A stretch of 64,000 nt of DNA from a phage. Below, piece by piece: positions 1 to 64,000 of the stretch; the first letter of the stretch is position 1, and every line of letters starts with the position of its first letter. The position numbers were made by a program, and so were the translations under genes. A model generated the notes under the pieces. It saw only the letters and a list, made by a program, of their open reading frames with translations. It did no database searches and was not told the origin of the DNA. The stretch lies in sequence record PV805633.1; one strand, written 5' to 3'.

Positions 1-87
1 TGACTGGGGCTACACCCTTACACTCAACCATCCCCCCCGGTATGTTGACCCTGTAGCCACTACCCTACCCCACCTTACACGTTACAC

Positions 88-100
88 GTTGCTCCGCAAC
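88..100 (+). promoter_or_regulatory. N4-type virion-RNAP early promoter hairpin (GTTGC-TCC-GCAAC)
   Basis: 5-bp GC-rich inverted repeat with 3-nt loop TCC (template loop GGA), followed by CTATGGA; same architecture recurs at 767 and 4748, all intergenic and upstream of plus-strand genes. Confidence 0.5.
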
Positions 101-143
101 CTATGGACATGTCGTCCTATCATCAACTATTGGAGCTATCATC

Positions 144-467
144 ATGACTACTACCGCTACTGTACGTATGACCGCAGGAACTCTGCTGGGTACTGTTAAC
201 TCAGCTGCTACTACTGTTGCAGATTCCTTCGGTGCTGCAACAAAAGCAGTTGGTATGCTTAATTCTTATGTAAGTACTATGGCAAAGAAACAAGCCATTC
301 GTACTAAATTAGAAATGCATACTTTCGAAAACAAATTAGCTGAAGAAACAGCTATGAACGAGACTCTTCGTAAGAAAAGTATCGAAGAATTCTGCAAAGA
401 TCCAGAAAACGCTCGTATCTACAACGCAGAATATTCAAGAATAATTGACATCCTGTCTAAAGACTAA
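144..467 (+). CDS. hypothetical early protein (107 aa)
   Basis: ORF track; SD-like TGGAG upstream; first gene after promoter hairpin. Confidence 0.6.
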   Translation: MTTTATVRMTAGTLLGTVNSAATTVADSFGAATKAVGMLNSYVSTMAKKQAIRTKLEMHTFENKLAEETAMNETLRKKSIEEFCKDPENARIYNAEYSRIIDILSKD

Positions 468-470
468 ATC

Positions 471-497
471 AATAGGAGGCTCTTCGAGCCTCCTATT
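471..497 (+). terminator. 12-bp perfect hairpin with 3-nt loop directly after ORF stop; no T-tract (possible phage-RNAP terminator or processing site)
   Basis: AATAGGAGGCTC-TTC-GAGCCTCCTATT read from sequence. Confidence 0.3.
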
Positions 498-556
498 AAG
501 GGCATTAGATAGATAGATAGTCAGTTCTGTATAAAAAGATAGGAGAGATACCTACT

Positions 557-703
557 ATGAGCAAACTAAAAAACGCATTCATGCTGATTGTCAGTGTCCT
601 TGCACTTGTTGCTATGGTTTCCGTATACATTGGAAAACCTCTGGTAAACACTGACTATGGTAATGGTCAGAAAGTAAAATCCATCCTGCTAATGGATAAG
701 TAA
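557..703 (+). CDS. small membrane protein (48 aa)
   Basis: ATG preceded by AGGAGAG; hydrophobic core MLIVSVLALVAMVSVYIG; below the 60-aa ORF-track cutoff. Confidence 0.4.
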   Translation: MSKLKNAFMLIVSVLALVAMVSVYIGKPLVNTDYGNGQKVKSILLMDK

Positions 704-766
704 AATGTCCTTGAATCTAAATCACCGTAAGAAATTCTGGATATCTTACATACCCTAAAAGACAAC

Positions 767-779
767 GACGCTCCGCGTC
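767..779 (+). promoter_or_regulatory. N4-type virion-RNAP early promoter hairpin (GACGC-TCC-GCGTC)
   Basis: Same stem-loop architecture and downstream TTATGGA as the hairpins at 88 and 4748. Confidence 0.5.
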
Positions 780-887
780 TTATGGATGATGTAAATGCAT
801 CCACTAATCATTGAAATTTTATCCTTTTGTTTGGGTGTTCTCACCGACGAGTTCACCCGTAATTCACATAAATCTGGAGAGTACAAA

Positions 888-1271
888 ATGTCTATTCAAA
901 AATTCACTTTCGGTCAATCTAACGCTGCTGCTACTTCTACTGCTAAAGCTGATAAACCTAAAGCTCAGTTCTGGCTGAACATTGGTTATGTAGCTAATGA
1001 AGGCTCTGATGATGAGAAATTCATCTCGCTGCCTACTGGTATCCCACTGGATACTCAGGAACCGCTGCCTACTAACAGCAGCAATGCTGACTTCCGTGCT
1101 ATGCGTTGTGCACAGAACGATTTGCTGGAACAGTTAATCGAATATGCTCAGAACCTGAAACCAGGTGAAGAGGGTATCATTAACCTGCAAGTTCAACTTC
1201 GTCGTGTGAAAGCAGAGGCTGCTGACATCCCAGCAGACGAGAATAAATATGCTCGTAAACTGACTTTCTAA
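888..1271 (+). CDS. hypothetical early protein
   Basis: ORF track 795..1271; start moved to internal ATG preceded by GGAGAG because the promoter hairpin lies inside the longer ORF. Confidence 0.5.
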
Positions 1272-1280
1272 TCAACAACT

Positions 1281-1310
1281 GGACTCCCTTCGGGGAGTCC
1301 TTTTATTTTT
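1281..1310 (+). terminator. rho-independent terminator
   Basis: GGACTCCC-TTCG-GGGAGTCC followed by TTTTATTTTT. Confidence 0.7.
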
Positions 1311-1415
1311 AACTCAGCGATAAACTAAGTAGAGTGTAATCCTACTTTTAGACGAAGAGTCACTAAAAGTTAAACGTAAACAGAAGCAGATAACTTAGAG
1401 TAAGGAGTAATCAAG

Positions 1416-1715
1416 ATGCGTACATTATGTAACCGTTATAACTCACAGAAGTTGATTGTTACGTTGCAACCTTGGGGTAGTAAGATGTCATTGGATGCTC
1501 GTTGGCAAGTGTCTGTAGAAGGCAAGAATGGCAAATGTCATGACCACTACTTCGTAGCTAAGCCTACTCGTAAACAAATCCGTAAACTTCACAAAGTACG
1601 TAAGCATTACTTACTAAGTAAATGCTACGAATGTGGCAAAAGGATAGAACTAGGTAAAGAATTTACTTTTGATGATCTCAACTATGCTCACAATAACTGC
1701 TTAGGAACTAAATAA
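1416..1715 (+). CDS. hypothetical Cys-containing protein (possible zinc-binding)
   Basis: ORF track; AAGGAG SD; CHDHY...CYECGK spacing. Confidence 0.55.
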   Translation: MRTLCNRYNSQKLIVTLQPWGSKMSLDARWQVSVEGKNGKCHDHYFVAKPTRKQIRKLHKVRKHYLLSKCYECGKRIELGKEFTFDDLNYAHNNCLGTK

Positions 1716-1817
1716 AATGACTACTCATAAAATTGTAAAAAGCTGGACTACTGAAGCTGGTTTATCTGCTGTAATCCTGCTAGTAATGATGGTTCTCACC
1801 ATTGTGGTTACGTAGCA

Positions 1818-2120
1818 TTGCCTGCTGATTTAGCAGACAAAGACTTTATTAATTATGATCCAGAAGAATCCATTTCTGTTCATGGTGGTGTTACCTATCA
1901 AGATGCACTTCCTCAATTAGAGGATAAAATCGCTATCGGTTTTGATTGTGCTCATCACGGTGACCTCATGAAATGCCCTGAGAAGTACAAAGGTACTCCT
2001 CTGGAAGGACTGCGCATGTATTCAGAAGGTGTATGGCGAGATGAGCAATATTGCACCAATGAGTGTGAGTCTATGGCTAAACAACTAATGGCAATGTTGC
2101 CTAAACAACTAGAAGGATAA
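1818..2120 (+). CDS. hypothetical protein; 5-prime end uncertain
   Basis: ORF track (TTG start, no SD); frame is open upstream to about 1755 and may join the ATG-initiated ORF at 1717 through a 1-nt frame change near a T run. Confidence 0.35.
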   Translation: MPADLADKDFINYDPEESISVHGGVTYQDALPQLEDKIAIGFDCAHHGDLMKCPEKYKGTPLEGLRMYSEGVWRDEQYCTNECESMAKQLMAMLPKQLEG

Positions 2121-2124
2121 TGCT

Positions 2125-2277
2125 ATGAAGCTACTAGCAGAGATTCTGTGTATTTTATTAATGATACTGCTGGTAGCTGCATTTCCGTGGCTATTAGCCG
2201 TAGGCATTATTATTGGTATGCTCGTAGCCGGAGCGAGTGATGCTCGTGGAAGAGATGAGCCAGGTGGGGATGTGTAA
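2125..2277 (+). CDS. small membrane protein (50 aa)
   Basis: ATG after AGAAGGA; hydrophobic LLMILLVAAFPWLLAVGIIIGMLV. Confidence 0.4.
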   Translation: MKLLAEILCILLMILLVAAFPWLLAVGIIIGMLVAGASDARGRDEPGGDV

Positions 2278-2291
2278 ATACTGTCAGAAGA

Positions 2292-2483
2292 GTGTGTACG
2301 GAGGAACCAGTGATATTCACTAACATTGAGGATGCCATTGAAGAATGTATCTTCCGTAGATATCACACTGGAGTGCAGAAAAGACACTATGGTGTTGTAC
2401 AACTCAATGGTTATCAAATGGCTGTAAGAATTGTACGTAACAATAAACCTTTTAACTTTATGTGGAGTACTAAACATGCGTAA
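2292..2483 (+). CDS. hypothetical protein (63 aa)
   Basis: ORF track. Confidence 0.4.
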   Translation: MCTEEPVIFTNIEDAIEECIFRRYHTGVQKRHYGVVQLNGYQMAVRIVRNNKPFNFMWSTKHA

Positions 2484-2607
2484 GTCATTAATCATGGGAA
2501 CCAAAGCTGACGTACAAAAGATGAAAGAGCGTCTGGCTGCTAAGCAACAGACATCTGAACCAGTACGTAAGATTGTTACCTTCAATCATCCGTGCATCAA
2601 ATAGTAA

Positions 2608-2638
2608 GGAGTCCTCCAATAGGAGGCTCCTATTTTTT
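2608..2638 (+). terminator. rho-independent terminator
   Basis: GGAGTCCTCC/AGGAGGCTCC stem followed by TATTTTTT; shares AATAGGAGGCTC with the hairpin at 471. Confidence 0.6.
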
Positions 2639-2681
2639 ATTTTTGAATAGTTAGATATGTATTTAAATAGGAGAAAGAACC

Positions 2682-2990
2682 TTGAATGAAATAGTATGCA
2701 TACTTCCACACTTAGCTAAAGTAGCTGATAGGAATATACGGATACATTTACCCTTCCCATTAAGTAACCCATTCACTCGTAATGAAAGAACCACAGTAGA
2801 GGATATAGAGGTAGCTTATGAAGCTTACCTTCGTAATCGTCTTATTAGTGGTGACAAATTAATTACAGCAGAGATGGAAAGGATTGCTGGCTTTGTCACA
2901 GATAGTACAAAGAAACCTGTTGGTTTAATTGGTACTGAATCTGATGTTAACGTTATTCGTAAAATATTAATGGAGGCATTAAGCCAATGA
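2682..2990 (+). CDS. hypothetical protein (102 aa, TTG start)
   Basis: ORF track; GGAG 8 nt upstream. Confidence 0.45.
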   Translation: MNEIVCILPHLAKVADRNIRIHLPFPLSNPFTRNERTTVEDIEVAYEAYLRNRLISGDKLITAEMERIAGFVTDSTKKPVGLIGTESDVNVIRKILMEALSQ

Positions 2991-3208
2991 TGTACTCAAA
3001 CGATTATGGTATATGCCCAGTCTGTAAGAAAGGACGTGGAGTTGCCAATCATAAGCGTTGTAGTCGTATTTTGCAGAAACAACGGAACCAGGAAGAATGG
3101 TCTAAGGTGTTGGAAAATCAGCATAAAGAAGAGAATCAACAGATGGCTGTTAGGGCATCTACTCAACGTATTCGCCGTATTAACTATATACAAGGATACC
3201 AAAAGTGA
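2987..3208 (+). CDS. hypothetical small protein with CxxC motif
   Basis: ORF track; overlapping start/stop with neighbours. Confidence 0.5.
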   Translation: MMYSNDYGICPVCKKGRGVANHKRCSRILQKQRNQEEWSKVLENQHKEENQQMAVRASTQRIRRINYIQGYQK

Positions 3209-3462
3209 TTATTACATTCCCTGTAACTAAATCATTTAACTATATGGGACAAACTATTGAAGTCCCATTATGGGTTAAATATGTAGCCTTATTGCCTCGA
3301 CCACAGAAGAGTAAGAATGCCTCACTAATTGGATTTAGTAGAAAGCCTAAGCTAACCGAAAACTGTATTTGGAAGTCTAGCGGTAGACAAGAGGAAATTG
3401 GTTTTTGTGACTATGTACCTCAACCGAATACAGTATATCTAACCCTGGAGAAAGTAGAGTGA
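3205..3462 (+). CDS. hypothetical protein
   Basis: ORF track; start/stop coupling. Confidence 0.5.
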   Translation: MIITFPVTKSFNYMGQTIEVPLWVKYVALLPRPQKSKNASLIGFSRKPKLTENCIWKSSGRQEEIGFCDYVPQPNTVYLTLEKVE

Positions 3463-3773
3463 ATAATATTGTAGTAGTACATGATAGTACATTTACTGAT
3501 GTCGATAAGATGATGCGTAATATTGATTATGTATCTCAGACCAGTAAAGCATTTAACGAAGAGTTCACTATCTATTGTGAACCAGAGTCACCACTGGTTC
3601 CTGTATTAAAGGAAGCAGGTCTACCCTTCTCTACAGAGAACTTCCCGGAGGAACCAGAGTATATGATTACATTCATATATGACTTACATGATGGCTCTCC
3701 TGCTAGTGAACTAGCTATGAACCAGTGGAGTAGTAAACGTCCTGTATATGCTTTCCAGGTACTCAAACCATGA
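3459..3773 (+). CDS. hypothetical protein
   Basis: ORF track; start/stop coupling. Confidence 0.5.
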   Translation: MNNIVVVHDSTFTDVDKMMRNIDYVSQTSKAFNEEFTIYCEPESPLVPVLKEAGLPFSTENFPEEPEYMITFIYDLHDGSPASELAMNQWSSKRPVYAFQVLKP

Positions 3774-4012
3774 TCTACGAAGAATATTATGTATTCAAAA
3801 AGGGAGATGATTTTATAGCTATGCCTAATAATTACAGGGGTTGGCATACAACTCCTGTATTAAAGGAAGCATTTTCCGTACCCAACCTGGAAGAGGTTAA
3901 TAAAGTAATGAACGGAGTAATGCTAACAAGAGGTATGGCTTACAAAATAGACGCATTAGAAGGAGCTTCTGTATGCAAAGTAACTACATCCATTGAGGTA
4001 CTTAAACCATGA
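3770..4012 (+). CDS. hypothetical protein
   Basis: ORF track; start/stop coupling. Confidence 0.5.
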   Translation: MIYEEYYVFKKGDDFIAMPNNYRGWHTTPVLKEAFSVPNLEEVNKVMNGVMLTRGMAYKIDALEGASVCKVTTSIEVLKP

Positions 4013-4389
4013 AAACTATCCCATTAGGTGATAACACCAATGCTTTGATGGGTGTATCCGCACGTCCAATTATCATTGTTAATAAACATCACGGTAAATC
4101 CGGTGAGTATATTGGACGTGGCTCACCGTTAGGCAATCCATTCGTCATTGGTAAACATGGAACCAGAGAGCAAGTAATTGCTAAGTATAAAGTCTGGCTA
4201 CAAGAACAGATTGATAAAGGTAATCCAGTTGTACTGGATGAACTTAATCGTCTTGGTAATAAAGCCATAGATGAAAAAGGATTAGCCTTACAGTGCTTCT
4301 GTTATCCAAAACCATGTCATGGTGCGGTTATTAAAGAGAAGCTAGTAAAGGCTATGTATAACTACTTTGTAGAAAATTCAAAAGGATAA
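4009..4389 (+). CDS. DUF4326-like protein
   Basis: EYIGRGSPLGNPF motif recalled from the DUF4326 family. Confidence 0.5.
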   Translation: MKTIPLGDNTNALMGVSARPIIIVNKHHGKSGEYIGRGSPLGNPFVIGKHGTREQVIAKYKVWLQEQIDKGNPVVLDELNRLGNKAIDEKGLALQCFCYPKPCHGAVIKEKLVKAMYNYFVENSKG

Positions 4390-4392
4390 TTC

Positions 4393-4743
4393 ATGAAAGA
4401 AATCTTAGTATTCACTACCAATGTACTTGGGCAGCATACCAATGCTGCTGCCAAGTTAGCTTATAAGAAGCACGGTGCACGTTGGGGCATGGCCTACGGT
4501 CATTATGGTAATAGCTTTGCCATCCCAGTAAGGGATGGCAATGGTAACCGAATTAAAGAGGGTGCTATCTATGGCTTCGTTGAAGGCTTTATTTCCTATG
4601 CATCTACTAATCCACAGTGGGATTTCAAAGTAATGGGAGATGACTATCTGGACCCATACCTGTTCAATAATGTTACTGGCAATGTACTGTTACCAGAAGC
4701 ATGGCGTAAATACTTAGGTGATGCTTACAACTACTGGTCATAA
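4393..4743 (+). CDS. hypothetical protein
   Basis: ORF track. Confidence 0.5.
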   Translation: MKEILVFTTNVLGQHTNAAAKLAYKKHGARWGMAYGHYGNSFAIPVRDGNGNRIKEGAIYGFVEGFISYASTNPQWDFKVMGDDYLDPYLFNNVTGNVLLPEAWRKYLGDAYNYWS

Positions 4744-4747
4744 GAAG

Positions 4748-4760
4748 GGTGCTCCGCACC
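4748..4760 (+). promoter_or_regulatory. N4-type virion-RNAP early promoter hairpin (GGTGC-TCC-GCACC)
   Basis: Same architecture as 88 and 767, followed by TTGTGGT; 32 nt upstream of the RNAP II small-subunit gene. Confidence 0.5.
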
Positions 4761-4791
4761 TTGTGGTAATTAAATAATTGGAGAATATGCG

Positions 4792-5610
4792 ATGTACTCA
4801 TCTATCGAACATCAGAAGCAGCTTGAAGTCCTATTCAATAAAAATCAATTACTGCCTCGCATGAGGAAGGAATTCGAGGACTCCAAAGAAATTGACTTTA
4901 AGGCATTCGCTGCCTATTTGGAAATTGATTATAAGCTGCTCATTGATGCAATGGTACAAATTGCCCTACATAAACGTGCTGACATCCAGACTATGATTGG
5001 CTCTCTCATGAGTCACTCAGATGATGCTCAGTACATCGCTGACTGTCTGTATAAGATGGCAGAGAATGACTGCTTCAACTATGACCCTACCATCGACAAG
5101 TTCGGTGTTATCTATGAGATTAGTGAAGATGTTCAGATGGAACTGGAAGCATTCCAGTATCCATTACCTATCGTAAGTGCTCCTAATCCTGTCAGAACTA
5201 ACAGGGATACTGGTTATTACCAGACTAAAGGAAGCATCATCCTCAAGAAGAACCATCATGAGATGGATGTCTGCCTTGACCACATCAACCGTATGAACAA
5301 TCAACGTCTCTGTATTAACTGGGACGTTGCTAACTATGTAAAAGACTCTCGTCCTAACATGGATAAACCCAAAGAGGGTGAAACCCGTCAGGAATATGAG
5401 AAACGTGTTAAAGCCTTTGAGAAGTACAGTCGTACAGCTAAGGAAGTAATGGAGTTAGTGACCCAAGAAGGTAATAACTTCTCACTAGGCCACAAATACG
5501 ACAAACGTGGGCGTACCTACGCTCAGGGCTATCACATTAACTATCAGGGAACCAGCTACAACAAAGCTGTTCTGGAGTTCGCTGATAAGGAGCTGGTAAA
5601 CGATGATTAA
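4792..5610 (+). CDS. phage RNA polymerase II small subunit (N-terminal part of a T7-like single-subunit RNAP; N4 gp15-like)
   Basis: KYDKRGRTYAQGYHINYQG resembles the T7 RNAP DWRGRVYAV...NPQG region; size 272 aa and position match N4 gp15. Confidence 0.65.
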   Translation: MYSSIEHQKQLEVLFNKNQLLPRMRKEFEDSKEIDFKAFAAYLEIDYKLLIDAMVQIALHKRADIQTMIGSLMSHSDDAQYIADCLYKMAENDCFNYDPTIDKFGVIYEISEDVQMELEAFQYPLPIVSAPNPVRTNRDTGYYQTKGSIILKKNHHEMDVCLDHINRMNNQRLCINWDVANYVKDSRPNMDKPKEGETRQEYEKRVKAFEKYSRTAKEVMELVTQEGNNFSLGHKYDKRGRTYAQGYHINYQGTSYNKAVLEFADKELVNDD

Positions 5611-5736
5611 TAATCGTGCAGTAGAAGACTTCTATGCTCATAGAGAGTTGGTACTGAAACGTATCAATGAAGCAATGAAACGTGAAGCAGAAGCTAAAGC
5701 TAAACGTAACCGTAAATAAATCCAAATGCGAGCCAA

Positions 5737-6185
5737 GTGGCTCAAGACGCTAAGGAATATAAAATGCAACTGTTAACCGCCCGTGAATACCTGAAAGTAG
5801 ATATCGCTAACAACTATGGCTTAGACAAAAAGACATGGGATGAGCGTATTAGCTGGTTCGATGAGAACGAAGCTAACCTGCTCAATCTGGTAGATGAAGC
5901 TGAAGAATCTGCACTGTTCTACGCAGGTGTAAACGCTTGGAAAGATATGAAAGCTGGTAAGCCTATCGGTTATGCCGTAGCTCTGGATGCTACATCATCT
6001 GGCTTGCAGTTACTGGCTTGCTTGACTGGTGATCGTTCTGCTGCTGAATTGTGTAATGTAGTTAACTACATGGGCGAGAATGGTAAGCCATTACGACGTG
6101 ATGCTTATACAGTTATCTATCACAAGATGCTGGACATCCTTGGTGAATCATCCCGTATTAAACGTAGTGATACTAAGCAGGCCGT
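5737..6185 (+). CDS. phage RNA polymerase II large subunit, exon 1 (motif A)
   Basis: LDATSSGLQLLACLTGD matches T7 RNAP motif A; frame ends 2 codons into the insertion; RIKRSDTKQAV is the first half of motif B. Confidence 0.7.
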
Positions 6186-6991
6186 TAACCTATAAGTCAT
6201 GGCGGCCTTTAAACCGGGTGAACTCATGGAACATCCCTAGTGGACAATCATGAGCCAAGTTGGTAACGTAGAAAGCTCAATAAGGAGCATTCTATGTCAG
6301 AATTCAAAACGTGCAGTCGATGTAAAGAATTACTTCCTATCGAAGTATTCCCAGAGACTAAAAAAGCAATCACAGGACTCAAGACTAATTACGAGAATCG
6401 TTGCAGACCTTGCAAGGCTGCTGCTGCTCGTGAATGGCGTAAAAATAATCCCGGTTACACTGGAACTGGGATTCTTAAGGCAATACCGGAAGAGCATCGT
6501 AATGGTATTCAGCAGTCTCACTTAGACTGAGAGATGCAAAGAGCAGATGTAAAAAGCTCGGTAAGCCTATGCCTGATTGCACAGTAGAGTACTTATTTGA
6601 AATCCTTAAATCACAGGAATTCAAATGTGCTTTAACTGGTGCAACCTTAGTAATTGAGTCGGGACATCCCTTGTGTCTATCATTAGACCAGATAGAGCCA
6701 AGCAAGGGATATAGTATTGATAATGTTCAATGGTTAGCTTGGTGTGTAAACCGAGCAAAGGGTGACCTTTCTACCAATGACTTTATTGATATGTGTGATG
6801 CTGTTTTGAATAACCAAAAGGTGCAGAGACTATCGAAAAGCAGCGTAAGCTGAACTTAGTAGAGTAGGCCCAAGTGGGTCGAAGCGCCCGGCTAGACTAA
6901 TAGTCTAGATGATATAGTCCGAACTCACTGGTAACAGTGAGATGCAGGTAAAGCTGCTGGGGAAGATTAACGACCTTCCTTGAACATAATG
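6186..6991 (+). mobile_element. putative group I intron carrying an HNH homing endonuclease
   Basis: Splits motif B; exon 1 ends in T, intron ends in G; GCGGCC guide sequence about 16 nt in pairs with the exon end GGCCGT with U-G at the splice site; P7-like AGACTA/TAGTCC and S-like GATGATATAGTCCG; internal ORF has its own AAGGAG SD. Confidence 0.6.
6294..6853 (+). CDS. HNH-family homing endonuclease, disrupted by a 1-nt frame change near 6500-6510
   Basis: N-terminal CSRCK...CRPCK zinc ribbon (ORF 6294..6530); C-terminal LRLRDAKSRCKKLGKP...CALTG...SLDQIEP..GYSIDNVQW..CVNRAKG in another frame (open from 6503, ORF 6569..6853). Confidence 0.55.
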
Positions 6992-7787
6992 TATGACTGC
7001 ATTCTATGGTTCAGAAGCCAAGCCTAAAGAAGTATTCGGTGAAGGTATTCGTCTCAAGACTTTTGAGAATGTAATGGAAACAGTTGCTAGTGGACCTTGG
7101 GCACTGAACAAGTTCTTACTGCAATGTGGTGACCCGGATGCTAACCGTTACGTATGGATACTGCCTGACAACTTCCATGCTGTCATTAAGGTCATGGTTC
7201 CAGAAGTACAGACTGTTAACTTCTTAGGTAAGCCATTCGACATCACTCGTATGGTTCAGGGTACTGAAGATAAGACTCGTATGCTCTCTGCTAACATCAC
7301 CCACTCTATTGATGGAATGGTGGTACGTGAGATGCTACGTCGTTGTAACTTCAACATGAACCAAGTGAACTATGTTAAGCCCCTCTGTGAAGGAACCAGT
7401 GAGTATATGCTGGGTACTAGCGAGAACTACGACATGGTTAGTCAACTGTGGCATAACTATGAGAAATCAGGATTCCTGTCTACCCGTATCTTTGATTATC
7501 TGGATTCTGACTCAATTAAACTGGTTGATACAGATGTAATCATGGCTATGCTTAATACCATGCCTAAGAAACCATTCCCTGTAATGACCGTACATGACTG
7601 CTTCCGTTGCCACCCTAACTACGGTAATGACTTGCGTCGTCAGTACAATCAGATTCTGTCTGACATTGCTAAGAGTGATCTACTGGGCTTCATCCTGTCT
7701 CAGGTACTGAGACAAGAGTTCTCTGCTGGTAAGCTGGATGACAGCCTCTGGCAGGACATCCTTGAAACGGATTATGCATTAAGTTAA
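6992..7787 (+). CDS. phage RNA polymerase II large subunit, exon 2 (motifs B and C)
   Basis: MTAFYGSEAKPK matches T7 MTLAYGSKEFG; VHDCF matches T7 motif C IHDSFG; exon 1 + exon 2 = about 414 aa, close to N4 gp16. Confidence 0.7.
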
Positions 7788-7794
7788 TAAACTG

Positions 7795-7829
7795 GCCTCA
7801 TACCTTCGGGTATGGGGCTTTTATTTTTT
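7795..7829 (+). terminator. rho-independent terminator
   Basis: GCCTCATACC-TTCG-GGTATGGGGC followed by TTTTATTTTTT. Confidence 0.7.
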
Positions 7830-7831
7830 GC

Positions 7832-8029
7832 TTGGAGGTAGTCAACATGACAGACATCTATGATGTTATTACTAAAACTGTACTGATAGTTTTATCTGCT
7901 ATTGTGGTATTCACTATAGCCAATGTTCATAAATCCAAGTTTTCCTATTGCTACTATGGGGCATATTCTGCCGGATGTTTTGTATTAGCCGGTTGGATAG
8001 CTTACTGGATTTACCACATCAACAACTAG
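7832..8029 (+). CDS. small membrane protein (65 aa)
   Basis: ORF track; two hydrophobic segments. Confidence 0.5.
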   Translation: MEVVNMTDIYDVITKTVLIVLSAIVVFTIANVHKSKFSYCYYGAYSAGCFVLAGWIAYWIYHINN

Positions 8030-8056
8030 CCACCCTCATGGGTGGCTTTCTTTTTA
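8030..8056 (+). terminator. rho-independent terminator
   Basis: GCCACCC-TCAT-GGGTGGC followed by TTTCTTTTT. Confidence 0.65.
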
Positions 8057-8102
8057 TCAGCCTTCATAATGATTAGGCATATTTACCTAAGAGGATACAT
8101 AC

Positions 8103-8924: not shown

Positions 8925-8973
8925 GGGTATCTCTTATTTGGGGTTATAAACCTGAAAGGAATCCCTCTAGTTT

Positions 8974-9010
8974 GACCTCCCTATTGAAGGGAGGTCTTTT
9001 TTTTTTTTTG
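8974..9010 (+). terminator. rho-independent terminator
   Basis: GACCTCCC-loop-GGGAGGTC followed by a T run of more than 10. Confidence 0.75.
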
Positions 9011-9034
9011 ACTTAAACAAACCGGAGCCAGGAA

Positions 9035-9223
9035 ATGTATAAAGAGATTGCATTCTTCTCGTTCTTGTTAGGTGGGTTAATTGGTGCAGGATTTGTAGCC
9101 ATTTCTAATAACTACTTTGGTTCTACTCCAAATTCTGTAACACAAACCCTCAAGCATGAATGTGAATTGAATATCCCTCGTAACCAAAACTGCGTAATGC
9201 AGTTCGTACCGGAGAAGAAATGA
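9035..9223 (+). CDS. small membrane protein
   Basis: ORF track; hydrophobic N-terminus. Confidence 0.45.
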   Translation: MYKEIAFFSFLLGGLIGAGFVAISNNYFGSTPNSVTQTLKHECELNIPRNQNCVMQFVPEKK

Positions 9224-9480
9224 ATATTCATAATCTACGTTTGGTTGAAAGACTGTATGAAGAATACAACGACAACCGACAGCAATTAGCTAGTATAAAA
9301 AAGTCCCCACATATGGTGAAAGTAACCTTCTGTGATACAGATTTGGGGGTACAAGCACGTACAAGCATAATCCCTAAATTGGTAGCATTTTATCAGAAGA
9401 AAGTGGATGACTTAGAGAAACGCCTAAAGCATTTAGGAGTTGACCTATCTTTATTACCTGAAGAAGAGGAAGAAGAGTGA
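9220..9480 (+). CDS. hypothetical protein
   Basis: ORF track; start/stop coupling. Confidence 0.5.
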   Translation: MNIHNLRLVERLYEEYNDNRQQLASIKKSPHMVKVTFCDTDLGVQARTSIIPKLVAFYQKKVDDLEKRLKHLGVDLSLLPEEEEEE

Positions 9481-13383: not shown

Positions 13384-13412
13384 AAGCCCACCTAACCCGT
13401 GGGCTTTTTTAA
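13384..13412 (+). terminator. rho-independent terminator
   Basis: AAGCCCAC-loop-GTGGGCTT followed by TTTTTT. Confidence 0.65.
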
Positions 13413-13494
13413 TTACAGGTACTCTTATGTCAAACAGACAAATGGTAAGTCTATCTTATATGGACTGGACTTAAGTAAACTGGAACAAACTGCA

Positions 13495-13806
13495 ATGCTT
13501 ACTTTAGGTATACATGACCAAGTAGAAGTGAATGGAATTGGTCCTGATGTTTGTGCAGCAATGCAAGCTGCTATTCAGAAAGGATGGACTAGTAGATCAT
13601 TTAATGTTTTCCCATACATCCCTCCTGAACCTCATCTGAAATCTAAGGTAGACAGAATCATAGATAAGTTCTGGCTTAGCCCATGCGGGGATGACATGCA
13701 TCTTTACCTGGCTCAAATACAAAAGAATCCGCGTACTAAAGATGTGTTCAAAGGCAAAAGCACTACCCACCATTACCCTTGGTATAGAAGAGGTAGTAAA
13801 TACTAA
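13495..13806 (+). CDS. hypothetical protein
   Basis: ORF track 13399..13806 begins with GTG inside the terminator hairpin; first ATG in frame used instead. Confidence 0.4.
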   Translation: MLTLGIHDQVEVNGIGPDVCAAMQAAIQKGWTSRSFNVFPYIPPEPHLKSKVDRIIDKFWLSPCGDDMHLYLAQIQKNPRTKDVFKGKSTTHHYPWYRRGSKY

Positions 13807-21351: not shown

Positions 21352-21736
21352 GAATATTAGTACCCAGATTGGTTGCCATCTGGAAGAAGTATGTGAAATG
21401 TTAGACGAGTTAACTCCTTCATGCGAAGAAAGTATGCAGGTATTAGCTGAAGCACAATCTGCTTTAAGTAAACTGTCCTTACTCATGAAAACAAATCACA
21501 CAGCTGTTTTCCCAGAAGATGCCAATCGTTTGGCTCTCCTGGATGCACTGGCAGATCAGATTGTTACAGCAACTGGCGTCGGTACTTTTCTTGGGATGAA
21601 TGTCCCTGGAGCATTGGCTGAAGTCAATCGCTCAAACTATTCCAAGTTCGAAGATGGGGAACCTATCTTCAACGAGAATAAGAAAGTCATGAAGGGGAAA
21701 GATTATACTCCCCCTGATTTAACACCTTACATCTAA
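21275..21736 (+). CDS. MazG-like nucleotide pyrophosphohydrolase, tentative
   Basis: QWFLKAVPNPT...HLEEVCEMLDEL resembles the MazG EExxE region; overlaps upstream gene by about 77 nt in another frame. Confidence 0.35.
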   Translation: MTSSSVCTLENTRQWFLKAVPNPTSKNISTQIGCHLEEVCEMLDELTPSCEESMQVLAEAQSALSKLSLLMKTNHTAVFPEDANRLALLDALADQIVTATGVGTFLGMNVPGALAEVNRSNYSKFEDGEPIFNENKKVMKGKDYTPPDLTPYI

Positions 21737-46119: not shown

Positions 46120-48074
46120 TTAAGGCATTTTCACATACCCAGGTATGCCTTGGGCTTGGCGTATATACCGTATAGCACGCTCCTGGTTTTCTTTCTCAGC
46201 CTCCCGATCTACGGAAGCCTGTGATCGAAAGTTACGAGGAGCCAGGTTTTGCGGATCAGCCTGTACCTGCCCCTGAGCATTTTTAAGCATTGCAGCAGCT
46301 CTAGCAACAGCCTCCTGTCGTGCAGGTAACAGTGCAGTAAGTGCAGTCTGACCTGTAGCAATCTTATTTGGGTGTTTGACAGTGCAGCTACGGCAGCATC
46401 ATATGCAGTCTGTGCTGCCTGAATATTCTGCATAGCCTGAGCACGACCAAGGTTACGTACACTTGCTTCAAGGGGTTCACCACGTTTTAACCCCTCAATC
46501 ATTTGGTCTACCTGACGGTCATTAAGTCGCAAGCCATTACCGGCTTCTGGGGTTTGCCCTATAGTTAGATAATCAATAAGACGTCCTGTATTACTTTCCG
46601 GTACGTTAGTCATTGCACGTTGAACAACAACACCTGCCATAGCAGGAGATACATTAGCACGCTGAGCAATATCATTGATACGAGCCACAACCCATTGTTT
46701 ATCTGCCCCCTTAAAGTCACCCTCTAGTAATCTGTTAGCAACTTCCCCAACAGTAGAAGTGTCATTTAAGGCAGGTAAATAATCAGGAGCAATACTTCCA
46801 GCATTGTCCTCCATAGAACGAGTACCAATCATACCGGTAGCCAGAGTAGATACTGCCTGATTACCTTGGTTATTCTGAACCATAGCTAGTGGGTCAGCCC
46901 CTACTTCAGCTTGGGCAATAACAGGTTTCATCTCTTCCCAAGTCATATCCTTATAAGCACCTGGAGTAGAGTTAGGCAGAGCAGCCCAAGTATCTTTAAG
47001 GTTACCGTTCTTACGGGCCTCGAAGATAGCCCTACCAATCTTATCCTGGTTCTCAGGAGAAAGAGGCTGGCTTTGCCAATCTGGACCAAGAACTTTAGGA
47101 GCGAAGTCTAGCAGAGTAGCTTGGTTAATCTGGAATGCACCAACAGGAGAAGCACCCTGCTTCGACTTCATACTATCCTGATGCTTAATTACATCACCAA
47201 TACTCATTTGAGTAATAGGAGTAGATGTACCAGCAAACTGGTAAGTAACATCATAAGGAGAACCCTGACGAGTACCAGCAGTACCTGGGGCAGACGTAGC
47301 ACCAACATTGTTACCGTAAACACCCGGATATGCTCGTGCAAGCATTTCCTGCAAACGTGCCTGTGCAACCGGAGACAGATGCTTACTATAAGATTCTGCC
47401 AGAATACGGGCATCGTCAGCATTCTCAGCACCACGAGTAATCAGTGCCATTACCCCCGTAGCAGCCTGACTATCAGCATCATTACGTTGAGCAACACCTA
47501 AATCAAAACGATTCTGTGCCTGATTAATAGCCTGACCACCCTGACCTTGAAGACGACTCAGCATGTCCAATTGCTGGTCAGCAGGGAGTGCAGACAATGC
47601 ATCACGGGTCTGACTTAATGCAGCATTAATACGGTTCTGGTCACCCGACTGATAAGCCTCAGACAGCAAACGAATAGCAGGGGAAGCATTATCTAATGCA
47701 GTGTTAGTATCCCGTAAACGATCAAAGTTATAAGTATTGTAGTCATTGGTTCCCTGCTGACCTTGTTGAGTCAACAGTGTACCTGCTCGCTCATCAAGGT
47801 TTTGGAGGGTACGCTGGTTTATCAATGAAGGGTCAACCCCCTGAAACAGTGCACCAGATGCCAAAGCATTGCGGTACTCAGTAGGGTCTTGGTACTGCAT
47901 AGCATTCATCATGACGGCATTGCCAGCCTCCTGCTTGGCAGCGTTCTGGAAATTACCCAGTGCATCACTTAAGCCGGAGGTGGCGTTACCAATCATGCTA
48001 CCAAATGTGCGAATGCTGTCACCAACTCCAGAGAAGTTAGGTGCATCAACATTTCTCCACGTTATCTGAGCCAT
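46120..48074 (-). CDS. virion structural protein (N4 gp51/52-like), with apparent 1-nt frame change near 46366-46372
   Basis: ORF track 46209..48074 ends in Leu-rich out-of-frame sequence; alternative frame gives a plausible Ala/Gln-rich tail ending at 46120 just before the terminator. Confidence 0.5.
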
Positions 48075-54033: not shown

Positions 54034-54049
54034 ATCATCTTATTCCTGT

Positions 54050-55270: not shown

Positions 55271-55289
55271 AGGAAATATCTCCGGTTAA

Positions 55290-55634: not shown

Positions 55635-55647
55635 GTGAAGGTCTGCC

Positions 55648-57918: not shown

Positions 57919-57926
57919 AGTTAATC

Positions 57927-58427
57927 CTATTCAAAAAGTTTACGGTCAGCCTGAATTTGCTTACCCAACTCAATTAGTTGGTTGTCACGGAGTCTAACAG
58001 TTGCCCGGAGTTCTTCAACCAAACGTCTGCCTTCTTCAAGACTGTTGTCGAGTCTGGCTGCATGGCTTGCAAGACTTCTGCACTCAAGGGTTCCGGCTTC
58101 GGCTTGACGTTTATATACCGATGCTCGTCTTTCAGACTGTTGCATCCGGCTGTCGTAATCACTGCTAACGCGAGCAAGCTCGCTTGCGTAATTACTCTCA
58201 GCCGTCTGCAACCGGGAAGTAAGTAACCCGACTTCATAACTATGGTTTCTTTGGAGAGCATTGTATTTGTCCTGTAGTTTTTGTGTTGCCTTCTGGTCTT
58301 CAACCTTTTGAGCATCCCATCTCTTTTGGACAGTAGACTGTCCATTGGAATTGCCCCAAAAGTAAATGGTGGCCCCGAGGACCACCACCAGAAGATAAGG
58401 CCAACCTTTAGAGATTAGCATCTTCAT
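57927..58427 (-). CDS. i-spanin (Rz-like)
   Basis: N-terminal [17 protein letters not shown] then coiled-coil periplasmic domain; start set at internal Met. Confidence 0.55.
57974..58237 (-). CDS. o-spanin (Rz1-like) lipoprotein embedded in the i-spanin gene
   Basis: Alternate frame inside i-spanin; signal peptide with lipobox-like TAGC; Pro-rich mature region. Confidence 0.5.
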   Translation of the reverse strand: MKSGYLLPGCRRLRVITQASLLALAVITTAGCNSLKDEHRYINVKPKPEPLSAEVLQAMQPDSTTVLKKADVWLKNSGQLLDSVTTN

Positions 58428-59042
58428 TACATGCCTCCAGTGGTACATTACCGATTCGGTTAGCTACCCAACCATACGTAAAGTCTGGCATGTTCAATGA
58501 GGTGTAGTGGTTCAATTGTTTAGCATCAAGCAACTTAATCATTACCTGACATGCTGCAACTTTGCCTCGTTTTTTCTGTAATGCTTTATATGCATTAACA
58601 GTACCTGCACCGACTTTACCATCAACTTGTATTTTAGGGTAGTCTTTGCCATCACGGGACATTTCATTAAGGGATTGCTGCAACCACTTAGCTGGTCTGG
58701 TTACACCGGTATTAACACCAGCATCAACCAGTTTGTGTGTTACAGCAGGAGATATATCAGCGAAGGCTACGAAGTTAGGCTTAATAACGTAGTCATCAAT
58801 GTATATCTCAGCAGCCATTTCTTTCGATAAACCCTTCATGGAACCATCCCAACCATACTCAGTAGCCAGAACTTCTTTGTGAGACTTAGCTACTGATTGG
58901 GTAATACCATGATTGGTTTCCCCACCTGGGTCACGAGGATTGTTTACGTACCCCCTTCCATATAGAACACTGCCCCCAGAATAGCAGCGATAACTCCTCC
59001 CACCGCACCCCCTTTTGCAGCAAGTTTCTGTTTAGCTTTCAT
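58408..59042 (-). CDS. SAR-endolysin, GH108-like N-acetylmuramidase with PG_binding_3-like C-terminus; apparent 1-nt frame change at a G5 run (plus strand C5 at about 58951-58955)
   Basis: ATG-initiated MKAKQKLAAKGGAVGGVIAAILGAVFYMEGG stops 4 codons after the run; downstream frame continues GYVNNPRDPGGETNHGIT...DGKVGAGTVNAYKAL. Confidence 0.55.
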
Positions 59043-59292
59043 GGGAATCTTCCTTTGGATGGAAACGTATTAGTCTGCCCACAATGTTTAAGGCAAACAG
59101 TGCGATTGTAATACTGGAACCATGTGGAATATCTTCAAGGATGTGACGTGGTAGTCCTGTTAGCATTGGTTGGATAATATCTACTGTAGAAAACAGAATT
59201 AATCCAAATGCACTAATCTGAACAGATGCCCACTTCCAGGACTTCTTCCAGTTAGGAACTAGCCCTATTTTTCTTTTTAGCTTGCGAACCAT
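59032..59292 (-). CDS. holin-like two-TM membrane protein
   Basis: ORF track 59032..59358, start set at internal Met; two hydrophobic helices; stop overlaps endolysin start. Confidence 0.4.
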   Translation of the reverse strand: MVRKLKRKIGLVPNWKKSWKWASVQISAFGLILFSTVDIIQPMLTGLPRHILEDIPHGSSITIALFALNIVGRLIRFHPKEDSHES

Positions 59293-59609
59293 GCGAATAT
59301 CTCCCGTCTTGCAGCAGCCAATACACCAATAATTGCACCTGCCCCAGCCCATACCCACTTACCAAAAATCCCAGCACCTGCAACCTTATGTTTGATGGTG
59401 ATGAACTCTTCAATGGTAGGTTCGGACTTAGTGATGCTCTCCTCTACCCGTTTAAGTCGGGTACTGAGGTCACCCATAGACTCGCTTAGCTTTTTAATAG
59501 ACTCTTCCATTTTCTCCCTATCCCTCGATTCACGAGTTTGGTTTTCGAAAATGTTTCTCAGTCTCTCTTCAAGTCTGGCTAGAGTTACGTTATCTGGTTC
59601 ATTTCCCAT
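59277..59609 (-). CDS. coiled-coil protein with C-terminal TM (lysis accessory candidate)
   Basis: ORF track; C-terminal GAGIFGKWVWAGAGAIIGVLAAA. Confidence 0.4.
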   Translation of the reverse strand: MGNEPDNVTLARLEERLRNIFENQTRESRDREKMEESIKKLSESMGDLSTRLKRVEESITKSEPTIEEFITIKHKVAGAGIFGKWVWAGAGAIIGVLAAARREIFAWFAS

Positions 59610-59854
59610 AGGGATTTTCTCAGGTTAGTTAAGTCGTAATTGACTAAAACAGTCTACCTAATGACTTGTTTTTGGTACAACAAAACCCACCCCCGCAACC
59701 TAGTTGGGCTGGTTAAAGCCTGAAATATGGAACAGCAGTCACCAAAACAACAAAGACCATACTTAGGATTGAGACAACCATATGGGTGGCTATATGCGTA
59801 TAATATTTTTAGGGAGCAAGTATACACCTGCTCCCCGGAGCTATCTCAGAGCCA

Positions 59855-62395
59855 TCAGAACACAAAATCCAGTTGCATAAGCTGCTTCAACTGAATCTGC
59901 ACGGTACTATCCTGGGTTACTTCCGGAACAGTTAAGCCAGAAACACCGATTGCAAAGTCCGCAATGAACCCGGTAGTAGGATTCCTTACTATATCCGCCC
60001 CAGTACCCCCAGAACCTGTACTTGCAAACTGAGTCTGCTTAGAACCAAAAGCATTACCTGTACCTGCAATAACTAGTTGCCATACACCCCTGCCGAGCGT
60101 ACCTGGAATACTCAAGCTACCTGAACCAGCAGCACGGAATATCTTGGTATTCTCATAGAACATACACTCTTGCAACGTGCAGGTACTTCTCTGCCCGGTA
60201 CTCAGTACCTGATTACCCTGGAAGCTAAAGTTAGTCTGGTCATTCAGAACGAAGTCGCAGAGCATGGATGCTTGCAACTGCACGTTCATATCCAGAGTGT
60301 TGGCATGTGCAATCAGGGACTTAGGAATGCCTCCAATACGATAACCGGGGGAGCGGTAGTTCAGGTTCAGCGTGTTCAGTTGCTTAATACTGTTACCCAC
60401 CAGCTTAACGGTTTGCCCACGATATACTTCAGTTGCGTTGGTGCCGGCGTTAATCATGACACCTTCTGCTTTATTGCTGGCGGTTAAGCACTTAAGCACT
60501 ACAGTATTATGACTTACGTCAATATCCTGGTACACCTGGTATGCGCTATCGCCACCTCCAGTTGATATAGCTACCCCATCAAAAGCTCTAAGCTCGCAAT
60601 AGTTGTTGTGAATCTTAACAAAGGGGTTCGGATACGTCGCTGCCGTAGCCTCCCCACCCCCACCTACATCGATGCTGCGGGTGTACCTGCCGCCCGCAAG
60701 CGGACCGGTACTGGTACTATCCGGAATATCCCTGGAGCGCACATAGTTGTTAGAGATTATGAGGTTATATGGTTCATAGTTTGGGTGCCAGCCTGAACCA
60801 CATTTAGCGTAGATACCGACTACGCCATGCTCCAGGCAGAAGTTATCAGTGATAATTAACTGACCCCCACCGTGAAAATCGATGCATTTTCTACGGCAGT
60901 TAAAAACGAAATTGCGGCTGGCTGTTATGTTGCGTATTCTCCTGTTTCTACCATGTCCGATGCCATAGCCAGGGTCAAAGGATGCATTCAAATCATCAGC
61001 ACCGTTCGGGTGTCCGATGTTGCTAATTACATTATCAAAGTAGCCCATTTTGTAGCCACACAGAACACCTATACCGTTTGAGTAACAGTTGGTTATTGTG
61101 TTCTTTGAAATAATAATACCTTCTGGAACATCGCTTTCATTTGGGTAGTCCGCCATGTCCGGTGAGGCAATATTTCTTATGCCAATCCCAACACCTGCAT
61201 AGTTAAAGCCAGATATCTTACACCTTTCAACGGTTATATTTTTACAAGCTCTTTGAATCTTAACACCGCAACTCCAGCTGCCAATATACCCGCCAAGAAA
61301 AGTACCCCAACTGCTTTGGTAGCTTCCTGTTGGATTACCCGCACTGTCATAGGATGGGAATTGTCCGGACACCTCATTAAATGCCCCTGTGTTATAACTA
61401 GAGGTATCAACTGAGTTATTTGGTCCCAACACATTAACTCCACCGGCTGTATTGTAGCCAAATCGAGATTCTCCTTTCTCTGCATAACCAGTAGGCGCAT
61501 CTATAGCAGGGAACTTGTTAGGGCCACGCACTGTTACAGACACAGTCACGTTCCGGCAATTTACAAGGGCAAGCCCATCCAGTCCGTGCGTATTCACAAT
61601 TATAGTGCCGTTGGAGATACGAATACCTTCCTTATTTACCAGTGCCAGACACGGACTGTAGTTACGTGTACCGTCGCTGAAGTCAGGCTCAGTAGGGTAC
61701 GTAGAAGCCAGTGCAGGATTTTTCGAACTAAATACGTCTTCCCGCCTAAATCAATATCTCCAGTGGTGGCGTCGAAACATGCCTGCACTGCCAACGTATC
61801 GTCGGCAACGCCATCACCAACCGCCCCCCCATCCACGTGGATCGCCATTATCACGCCAGCGAGCCATTTGTAGTTCGGGGTATTTTGTTGCACCTTCAGG
61901 GTCTGAAATCTGTCCTCGTAGTACCGCATCCCCAACACTCACCCAAGCACCCAGACCAACGCCACCAGAAGTTTCGGGGGTTGAATCAGCAGGAACCTCT
62001 TTAGGTAATGCTCCATCCCAACGGTACTTACCATCAGTGAATACAACCAGTTCATTCTTAGTATTAACTGTTACACCAGTAGCAAATGAACCAGGTAGGG
62101 TTACATACTCTTCACGAGCAACAGCCAGTGCACCTAAGTCCACACTACCAGCAGAATGAACTAATACTCCAGCAGGGCTAAGACTTACAGCAGTAACCCC
62201 TGAACCAATATCAGCAGGTAAGGAATAAGCACGCTGTGACGCTTTGTCATAAATGACTTTGTAACCAGTAAGCAGAGCACCCACTGAGAAGTAAACAACT
62301 TCCGATTGTTTAACCCCAAAGTGACGGGCTACTGCTTGTTTGTTGGTTAATATTCCGGTTGATCCTCTTCCACCTTGTGAGAATAATTCGTTCAT
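59855..62395 (-). CDS. tail spike with pectate-lyase-like beta-helix; apparently one gene split into three ORFs by two frame changes
   Basis: ORFs 61814..62395, 61636..61938 and 59855..61597 overlap in different frames; junctions near the T5 run at about 61719-61723 and in the 61815-61860 region; 59855 ORF frame stays open upstream of its GTG start. Confidence 0.45.
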
Positions 62396-62422
62396 GTAAA
62401 CCTCTTTGTTTTTCTATAAGAA

Positions 62423-62440
62423 ACTGCCCCGAAGGGCAGT
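62423..62440 (-). terminator. rho-independent terminator
   Basis: Minus strand reads ACTGCCC-TTCG-GGGCAGT followed by TTTCTTAT. Confidence 0.5.
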
Positions 62441-62444
62441 CTGT

Positions 62445-64000
62445 TTAGCCAATGGACATACGGGAGTTAGCGAAATCATACGCATCTTGCTTTTTAGCAA
62501 ACTGCGTTACGAAGTAGTCGCTGATACGAATTACACACCCGTTCGTTGACTGCAACTTAAGACGGCAAGTTCCTGCTGTTGCCGCCTGTCCTACACCGAA
62601 AGTATGCACCCATTCTCCTGGTGATGTGTATAGCCCCCCAAGAGGTACAGAATCCGCAATAGATGCCGTAACATCACCACTTACCAGTTTAAGACTGCAC
62701 CCCCATACAATCTGATAATACTGCGCTATGTTAGCCACTGGTTCACTCAAGAATAGGGTATATCCGGCAGGTATTACTAACTGAGCGCAAGTATCGCTTA
62801 ACACACCGTCAGTAACCGATGTGGCGTCTACGGTGCTCGTCCCGACAAACGCCCACGGCCCGCTCCCTGAAAAAGATTGTGAGTTTAGTACCGTACCAGT
62901 ATGTGGGCGCTTTATTCTTCCGTTCAGCTTTGTACCACGAAGTGACAAATCCAGGTTACTGGCCACAGTGGATGAAACACTCGCCACAGATTCAACGTGA
63001 ACCTTATCGCCGACGTAGCCACCTACGATAAGGTCGTGCGCAATAATCTGGCTTCCGTCGTCAACATTGATACTATACACACCAGTCGCGGCATCAAACC
63101 TACAGTTTTTTGCCACCAGGGTAGAGCTTATCAGCTCAATATTGTTAAAATGGCACCCTTCCGCAACAGTTACCGGAACATTCTCTATTTTTAACTGTCT
63201 CGGGGTTTGCGGAACCCCGTCAACAGTTACTGTGTCTGCGGTGGCTACCAATTCGAACCATACGTTGCTGATAGTGGGCGGTACGACAGGAGCCAATCCA
63301 TTGCCTTTAAAATAAATACCGCCACCAGGGCATGCCTCAATGATACAGTCACGAATTGCTATGCCGTCAAGACCACCACCAGGAGCAGGACCTCCGACAG
63401 CGCCATTAAGGTAAATGCTGTACGTATTAATTCCTGCAAAATGGCAATCCCTCCATGTATCAGCCCCGACATGCATGCCTGGGTCTGATACCGCCATATG
63501 GCCGTAATTACACGCCAGATAGCTACAGTGTTGGTACGTGTTGCCGATGTTTCCTTTCGGCTTGTAAAATCCAATATCAAGACCGTCAAAGGCAATATCC
63601 CTAAAGTTCCATCGGCCATCAAGATTAGATGATCCAAAAGCTATGCCTGTACCAACAGGGGTGGTTATGTCCCCTTCGATGAGGAAGTTCTGGGCGTGCC
63701 GATACTGCCACAGGCGGGAAGACTCGGTTAGAGTTAAACTTGTTTCCCCGGAGGATGGTTTAAATTTTACCTGATAACCAGTACCAATTATGTTGGCATT
63801 TCCCGATGTGTATTGCCCCGTGTAAGTACCAGGAGTGACCAGGAGATCATCTCGCCATCCAGTTGCATCAATAGCATCCTGTAAGTCTAAGTAATTACCA
63901 GAATGTTTAATATCATCAAGATTGTCAGCAACAGTTCTCGTCCCATGACCAACGGATGCAGAACCAGTTGTCTGTGAATAGAAGTCCTTAACTTCAGCGA
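62445..64000 (-). CDS. second beta-helix tail fiber/spike protein, 5-prime partial (runs off window)
   Basis: ORF track 62445..63497; frame stays open upstream of that Met for at least about 70 codons. Confidence 0.45.
   Translation of the reverse strand, partial: AEVKDFYSQTTGSASVGHGTRTVADNLDDIKHSGNYLDLQDAIDATGWRDDLLVTPGTYTGQYTSGNANIIGTGYQVKFKPSSGETSLTLTESSRLWQYRHAQNFLIEGDITTPVGTGIAFGSSNLDGRWNFRDIAFDGLDIGFYKPKGNIGNTYQHCSYLACNYGHMAVSDPGMHVGADTWRDCHFAGINTYSIYLNGAVGGPAPGGGLDGIAIRDCIIEACPGGGIYFKGNGLAPVVPPTISNVWFELVATADTVTVDGVPQTPRQLKIENVPVTVAEGCHFNNIELISSTLVAKNCRFDAATGVYSINVDDGSQIIAHDLIVGGYVGDKVHVESVASVSSTVASNLDLSLRGTKLNGRIKRPHTGTVLNSQSFSGSGPWAFVGTSTVDATSVTDGVLSDTCAQLVIPAGYTLFLSEPVANIAQYYQIVWGCSLKLVSGDVTASIADSVPLGGLYTSPGEWVHTFGVGQAATAGTCRLKLQSTNGCVIRISDYFVTQFAKKQDAYDFANSRMSIG

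Follow-up and report, generated by a model that had tools for sequence, protein, structure and literature searches.

A double homopolymer error in the przondoviruses of the HYPPA study made three open reading frames (ORFs) of one DNA polymerase gene (PMC10438801), and BLASTX against a homologous phage is recommended for the detection of frameshifts (PMC8785237). Here I report a comparable situation in the sequence record PV805633.1. The analysed stretch of 64,000 nucleotides, hereafter called the window, comprises the initial 64 kb of the genome of a Gamaleyavirus phage (G7C-like, N4-like; Schitoviridae). It was found that six genes of the window are broken by seven single-base length changes, each of which was mapped to the base by alignment with relatives. 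As in the HYPPA case (PMC10438801), one-base indels in homopolymers split conserved genes, and the tail-spike gene likewise appears as three ORFs, of 193, 100, and 580 aa in a three-frame translation. Short-read polishing, read mapping, or Sanger sequencing served to demonstrate the errors in that study, while the window was assessed by comparison only. The breaks very probably result from uncorrected homopolymer consensus error of a long-read or flow-based kind.

The nearest relative in the phage collection is Escherichia phage vB_EcoP_G7C (NC_015933), with about 95.5% nucleotide identity by megablast, and the same search gave no record with >99% identity to the window. Base 1 of the window corresponds to base 1 of G7C, and the genomes are colinear. 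An N4-type gene set is present in the window, including a virion RNA polymerase of 3,754 aa, and nearly all proteins are 94-100% identical to those of G7C over the full length. For the frame screen, the translated proteins of G7C were all compared with the window by tblastn. In a second screen, every stop-to-stop ORF of G7C, F22, Bas96, E20, PhAPEC5, and PD38 was used, and queries with a frame switch between consecutive matches were flagged. The regions specific to the window were compared with their own nearest relatives. The relatives came from GenBank (phages), from IMG/VR (contigs), and from metagenome or run assemblies, and contig names of the types NODE_..._cov and k141/k127 evidently mark several of them as short-read assemblies. 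No exact match to the portal protein or to nine other proteins of the window was found in the protein and contig collections, nor was the tail-spike-site pattern found in IMG/VR.

The broken genes and their frame breaks are as follows.

1717..2120, plus strand: gp4-like gene (N4 gp4 homologue), 134 aa when corrected; a stop after 32 codons as recorded
1785..1786, plus strand: frame break 1, AA against AAA or GAA in relatives, one base short
6294..6853, plus strand: HNH-type homing endonuclease gene of a putative intron, 186 aa when corrected
6501..6502, plus strand: frame break 2, AA against AAA in eight related contigs
13427..13806, plus strand: gp28-like gene, 126 aa when corrected; a stop after 15 codons as recorded
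13440..13442, plus strand: frame break 3, AAA against AAAA in F22, Bas96, and PhAPEC5
46120..48074, minus strand: virion structural protein gene gp51, 651 aa when corrected; recorded as 621 aa with an out-of-frame tail
46367..46369, minus strand: frame break 4, TTT on the plus strand; one base more in relatives
58408..59042, minus strand: endolysin gene gp61 (Glyco_hydro_108 and PG_binding_3), 211 aa when corrected; a stop after 32 codons as recorded
58951..58955, minus strand: frame break 5, G5 on the coding strand (C5 on the plus strand) against 6 nt in relatives
59855..62395, minus strand: tail-spike gene (gp63.1-type N-terminus and foreign receptor-binding module), 846 aa after two corrections; a stop after 193 codons as recorded
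61824..61830, minus strand: frame break 6, G7 on the coding strand (C7 on the plus strand) against G6; the sole insertion
61719..61723, minus strand: frame break 7, A5 on the coding strand (T5 on the plus strand) against A6

All of the breaks lie in homopolymers, and each is exactly one base off from every relative examined. The coding-strand tracts as recorded are A2, A2, A3, A3, G5, G7, and A5, and the changes are six deletions and one insertion. The in-frame length is carried by 3 to 12 independent relatives per site. The six corrected ORFs are of full length and colinear with their homologues, and their frames are open throughout; no further stop or indel was found downstream in the broken genes. 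The parts downstream of the breaks are 92-95% identical to their nearest relatives in the gp4-like gene, the C-terminal part of the HNH gene, the gp28-like gene, the endolysin gene, and the tail-spike segment, while the gp51 tail is less similar (70-75%). The initial annotation had listed frame changes in the intron endonuclease, virion protein, endolysin, and tail-spike genes, and all of them exist and are now placed by alignment. It had also considered a break around 1717 and 1818 as possible; this case is real, for the ATG at 1717 opens the gp4-like gene, whose frame switches at the AA of 1785-1786. The gp28-like gene, opened by an ATG at 13427, is a further broken gene that was not on that list.

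Three of the broken genes encode the endolysin, the tail spike, and gp51, proteins that in N4 and G7C act in lysis or belong to the virion. In G7C, gp51 and the endolysin gene are intact, unlike the recorded genes of the window. When gp51 sequences of G7C, Bas96, E20, PD38, and PhAPEC5 were used as tblastn queries, residues 1-575 matched in frame -3 and residues 573-652 in frame -2. At the site of the switch, the coding strand of the window reads CCCAAATAAG, while five GenBank relatives have CCCAGAATAAG or CCCAAAACAAG; the break itself reads CAGAAT or CAAAAC in relatives, and all four IMG/VR contigs have 4 nt at the site against 3 in the window. The peptide that spans the junction of the corrected gp51 is NTQNKIATGQTALTALLPAR.

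The endolysin gene gave tblastn matches in two frames before correction, and both Pfam domains were found on the corrected protein, whose junction-spanning peptide is MEGGYVNNPR. The window has GAAGGGGGTAC at the break, while the site is 6 nt long (GGAGGG, GGGGGA, or GGGGGG) in five relatives from GenBank and in seven contigs from IMG/VR. The pure G6 allele is natural in two relatives (L026 and L031), and thus the G5 of the window is what a one-base undercall would be expected to give.

For the tail-spike gene, the single 1-nt correction proposed in the initial annotation is insufficient, and two corrections are required. At break 6, the sequences L005, L036, L037, and L038 have G6, and the recorded frame reaches a TGA four codons on; at break 7, the same four and L004 have A6. 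The sequences compared at the tail-spike sites were three metagenome or run assemblies and two phage records. Removal of one G and addition of one A give a clean ORF of 846 aa with the Pfam domain Tail_spike_N. Across the two correction sites, the alignment of the corrected protein with six homologues (alignment with P0121-P0129) is gapless, and the columns G42 A43 G45 D46 G47 D50 D51 T52 ... K77 N78 are invariant. The junction-spanning peptide is GWGAVGDGVADDTLAVQACFDATTGDIDLGGK. The GenBank records of Enterobacter phages were rejected as references for this gene because of their chopped ORFs and extra indels, and contigs from metagenome and run assemblies were used in their place. In two of these records, L004 and L005 (PQ039555 and PQ039553), the annotation divides the homologous tail-fibre gene into numerous small ORFs, and there are extra one-base gaps (for example G5 or G6, and GGCGGG read as GGGGG); public records thus seem to contain homopolymer artefacts of this type as well.

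In the gp4-like gene, residues 1-23 are encoded in frame +1 and residues 24-134 in frame +3, as judged by tblastn with the 134-aa proteins of CU10EC and VTCC322 and with N4 gp4. The DNA alignment has AGTAATGATGG in the window against GTAAATG in CU10EC and N4 and GTGAATG in VTCC322, and the reading in the relatives is MTTHKIVKSWTTEAGLPAVILLVNDGSHHCGYV. The corrected HNH protein is 91% identical to the 186-aa protein P0001, with the common stretch HRKWYSAVS, and it is colinear with P0002, P0003, P0007, and the JWAlpha endonuclease; ORF21 of HN02 matches the HNH gene of the window in two frames by tblastn. At break 2, the contigs L017-L024, six of which are metagenome assemblies in the European Nucleotide Archive (ENA), all have CGTAAATGG against CGTAATGG in the window. 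The corrected gp28-like protein matches a 127-aa protein of F22, and the stop-to-stop ORFs of F22 and Bas96 match the locus in two frames. Break 3 reads GACAAATGG in the window against GACAAAATGG in F22, Bas96, and PhAPEC5, the rest of the 133-nt alignment being identical, and the IMG/VR copy of PhAPEC5 shows a 4-nt gap at this site in a pattern scan. A mechanical ORF at 13399-13806 with a GTG start was dismissed as an artefact of break 3. The context (A)AATG(G/A)T is common to the three breaks at 1785, 6501, and 13440. An error specific to this motif was considered and rejected, since ten intact AAATGGT sequences remain in the window; there is no systematic effect of the motif, and the shared context is probably a coincidence.

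Is such a set of breaks expected by chance? Runs of at least five identical bases make up 693 nt, or 1.08% of the window, and three of the seven breaks lie in such runs (C5, C7, and T5 on the plus strand), as the initial annotation had stated. The probability that at least three of seven random positions fall inside these runs is about 4e-5 (binomial). The clustering of the breaks in long runs is more than chance. As a control, six relatives were aligned to G7C over about 122 kb, and no isolated coding 1-nt indel was found, against seven in the 64 kb of the window. The control contained six isolated 1-nt gaps, all of them non-coding, and three of these represent one T7 tract private to G7C that was met in three alignments. 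The right-hand segments of E20, PhAPEC5, and PD38 in the control had no isolated 1-nt gaps. About 7 of about 28 runs of at least six bases in relatives differ in the window, compared with about 5 out of some 2,400 runs that have 3-4 bases; this rise of differences with run length is only indicative, and the non-coding differences could be natural.

Differences in run length were also found outside genes.

8051..8055, plus strand: non-coding T5, T6 in G7C, F22, and Bas96; U-tract of a terminator
8951..8952, plus strand: non-coding CC, CCC or CCCC in four relatives
8997..9009, plus strand: T13 tract, T7 in four relatives (G7C, F22, Bas96, and a metagenome contig); after a terminator hairpin
33732..33736, plus strand: non-coding A5, A6 in G7C
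34060..34064, plus strand: non-coding T5 (terminator tail), T6 in G7C

Four of these (8051, 8951, 33732, and 34060) are one-base shortenings seen only in the window, and with them the ratio of deletions to insertions becomes 10:1. The shortening at 8051 is probably the same artefact as the coding breaks. The difference between T7 and T13 could be an error or a genuine expansion.

The other genes of the window are not affected. The remaining genes that match G7C are in one piece from end to end when compared with G7C, F22, and Bas96, and the tail-fibre gene at 62445-64000 is a single open frame that continues past the end of the window. Several other candidates were examined and rejected. The overlap of gp35 and gp36 and the low identity of gp36 are due to a hypervariable middle segment that is present in all relatives. 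The gp41 protein has 94 aa against 156 aa in G7C; it equals the 94-aa gene of Bas96, and the extension in G7C accompanies the HNH insertion there. The overlap of gp42 and gp43 is an effect of the start call (a mechanical TTG at 27703), since gp43 aligns from 27751, as in G7C. Paired 1-nt gaps against G7C in the virion RNA polymerase gene, gp25, gp42, and gp51 are alignment effects in divergent patches of equal length. The general caution about ORF boundaries expressed in the initial annotation is thus justified for the six genes, but not for the rest of the window, where the genes are intact.

How did the breaks arise? The preferred explanation of the initial annotation, a homopolymer consensus error, is supported by what the sites have in common: they are changes of one base in runs, they are private to this record and biased to deletion, a conserved protein is encoded downstream, and a one-base correction restores it to full length. 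The consensus would miscount the length of homopolymers by one at seven positions in genes, to which four or five positions outside genes can probably be added. The true runs on the coding strand would most likely be A3, A3, A4, A4 (T4 on the plus strand), G6, G6, and A6, and in the real phage all six proteins (gp4-like, intron HNH, gp28-like, gp51, endolysin, and tail spike) would most likely be intact. A base-calling or consensus error, with a nanopore-like deletion bias or from flow-based chemistry, may have been left without short-read polishing. The deletion bias suggests nanopore sequencing, while a flow-based chemistry is possible. Some observations weigh on the other side. The error was deduced from comparison; four of the seven sites are short (2-3 bases as recorded), which is less typical of miscalls than runs of at least five bases; and a miscall of one base would not typically turn T7 into T13. 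Since homopolymers are favoured by replication slippage too, their presence at the sites does not by itself separate error from mutation, and genuine inactivation would be tolerable in the gp4-like, gp28-like, and intron HNH genes. The record might describe a defective or decaying variant with genuine mutations, or at least pseudogenes of accessory genes made by replication slippage. In the homing cycle, homing-endonuclease genes normally pass through a stage of decay, and relatives can do without three of the six genes, since G7C has neither the intron nor the gp4-like and gp28-like genes. However, the endolysin gene, gp51, and the tail-spike gene (twice) are also broken, which is hard to square with a viable phage; since all three products are truncated or altered as recorded, a viable plaque-forming phage carrying all of the lesions is implausible. 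Genuine mutation and pseudogene decay also accord poorly with the lack of a second lesion downstream in any gene, with the clean corrected ORFs, with the lack of a coding 1-nt indel in the control, and with the equal one-base shortenings in non-coding runs. The identical signature at all sites argues for a single cause. I regard genuine mutation as unlikely.

Alternatively, the run lengths may be real and the frames may be restored by recoding, either by programmed ribosomal frameshifting or by transcriptional slippage of the phage RNA polymerases. The conservation of the downstream frames and the three sites in runs of 5-7 bases would fit with this. Like the lambda G/GT tail chaperone and T7 gene 10A/10B, the window has two frames that must be joined for the full protein. 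Unlike the window with its seven unrelated positions, however, those systems have a slippery site conserved in relatives and give two products by design. Read in the zero frame, none of the sites fits the heptamer X XXY YYZ (GTA ATG ATG, CGT AAT GGT, CAA ATG GTA, CAA ATA AGA, GAA GGG GGT ACG, and CGA AAA ATC). Known transcriptional slippage in bacteria typically takes place at long A/T tracts of roughly 8 or more bases, but no such tract is present at the breaks; four of them have just AA, AAA, or TTT, and no tract exceeds G7 or, among the A/T tracts, A5. Recoding would take six -1 events and one +1 event in unrelated contexts, and the zero frame after the G7 meets a TGA after four codons with no known +1 signal. 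No relative requires a frame change at these positions, and thus nothing is conserved. The initial annotation had rated recoding as the less likely alternative, and I agree with this rating, in the lack of slippery sites, of long tracts, and of a need for shifts in relatives; recoding of either type is very improbable. A special form of it is likewise very improbable: the phage would express the endolysin, the tail spike, gp51, and the three accessory genes by recoding short homopolymers often and in a non-canonical way, as through low-fidelity slippage of its own N4-type RNA polymerases. The homopolymer consensus error is almost certainly a known kind of artefact and no new biological feature.

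The broken HNH gene lies inside an insertion in the gene of the RNA polymerase subunit RNAP2 (gp16), which was delimited by tblastn and blastn against G7C gp16.

5764..6185, plus strand: exon 1 of RNAP2 (gp16)
6186..6991, plus strand: putative group I intron, 806 nt as recorded, interrupting the stretch K-x-AVMT-x-x-YGS between KQAV and MTAFYGS
6992..7787, plus strand: exon 2 of RNAP2 (gp16)

The joined exons encode 405 aa, of which 395 are identical to G7C gp16 without gaps. The intron is absent from G7C, F22, and Bas96. A T precedes the 5′ splice site and the intron ends in G (GGCCGT/TAACC ... ATAATG/TATGAC). The Rfam family Intron_gpI (RF00028) gave 30.2 bits (E=1.3e-5), below the gathering score of 50, with a good alignment of P7-P9; the 5′ part of the intron matches RF00028 separately (E=0.071), and the internal ORF splits the core. 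At the gathering threshold, Rfam gave no match in the whole window. Judging from these sequence features, the gp16 insertion is a predicted group I intron with an HNH-type gene. A split gp16 is also present in L017-L024. It occurs in a 74.8-kb Salmonella-associated contig, in several metagenome contigs, and in the Burkholderia phages HN02, HN04, and HN05, where the annotation treats the parts as separate genes, 'RNA polymerase 2' and hypothetical ones. A homologous endonuclease is found in N4-like phages of Achromobacter, including JWAlpha. A td intron is known in the N4-like Vibrio phage pVa5 (PMC5746245). Like the td introns of T4 and pVa5, the putative gp16 intron lies in a highly conserved stretch of a conserved gene and has T/G borders and an internal HNH-type ORF; its resemblance to the Rfam group I core is below the gathering score. 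It differs from them in the host gene, an RNAP2 subunit gene instead of td, and its splicing is only predicted. No paper describing the RNAP2 intron was found in the literature searched.

T7-like phages of Enterobacter cloacae (vB_Ecl_MII_002, MII_004, and the IJM phages) have a tail-fibre region with 83-93% DNA identity to the receptor-binding part of the tail spike (59855-62030), and as protein this part is 89% identical to the metagenome protein P0121. This suggests, at the sequence level, that the module has been exchanged between N4-like and T7-like phages. G7C differs from the window in this part of the gene (gp63.1) and in the lack of the gp16 intron. In addition, the five free-standing HNH genes of G7C (gp2.1, ST15.1, gp24.1, gp41.1, and gp47.1) are all missing from the window, and gp1.2 and gp32.1 are likewise missing, while the window has three genes beyond the G7C set: the gp4-like gene, an 86-aa ORF at 9220-9480, and the gp28-like gene.

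Two other regions were noted. When G7C, Bas96, F22, and the window are compared, gp36 (NTP pyrophosphohydrolase) has a hypervariable middle segment (21400-21540) between nearly identical flanks, a local mosaic and no frameshift. An ORF-poor region of 1.8 kb (32965-34770) is conserved with G7C and is unannotated there. It contains two T-arm-like motifs, GGTTCGATTCC(C/A)TCC, at 33531-33545 and 33598-33612, which are 67 nt apart. ARAGORN, run on the whole window and also with relaxed thresholds, and Rfam identified no tRNA at these motifs, and the fold at the repeats is no better than that of shuffled sequences (z=-0.97). The motifs may be tRNA remnants.

For annotators, these results mean that the six genes should be repaired or merged, instead of being deposited as about 13 fragments. 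The split endolysin, tail-spike, and gp51 genes should not be taken as novel small genes, as cases of recoding, or as pseudogenes, and the record needs polishing with accurate reads before comparative or engineering use. The damage is confined, and two real features emerge among the artefacts, the predicted RNAP2 intron and what appears to be an exchanged tail-spike module.

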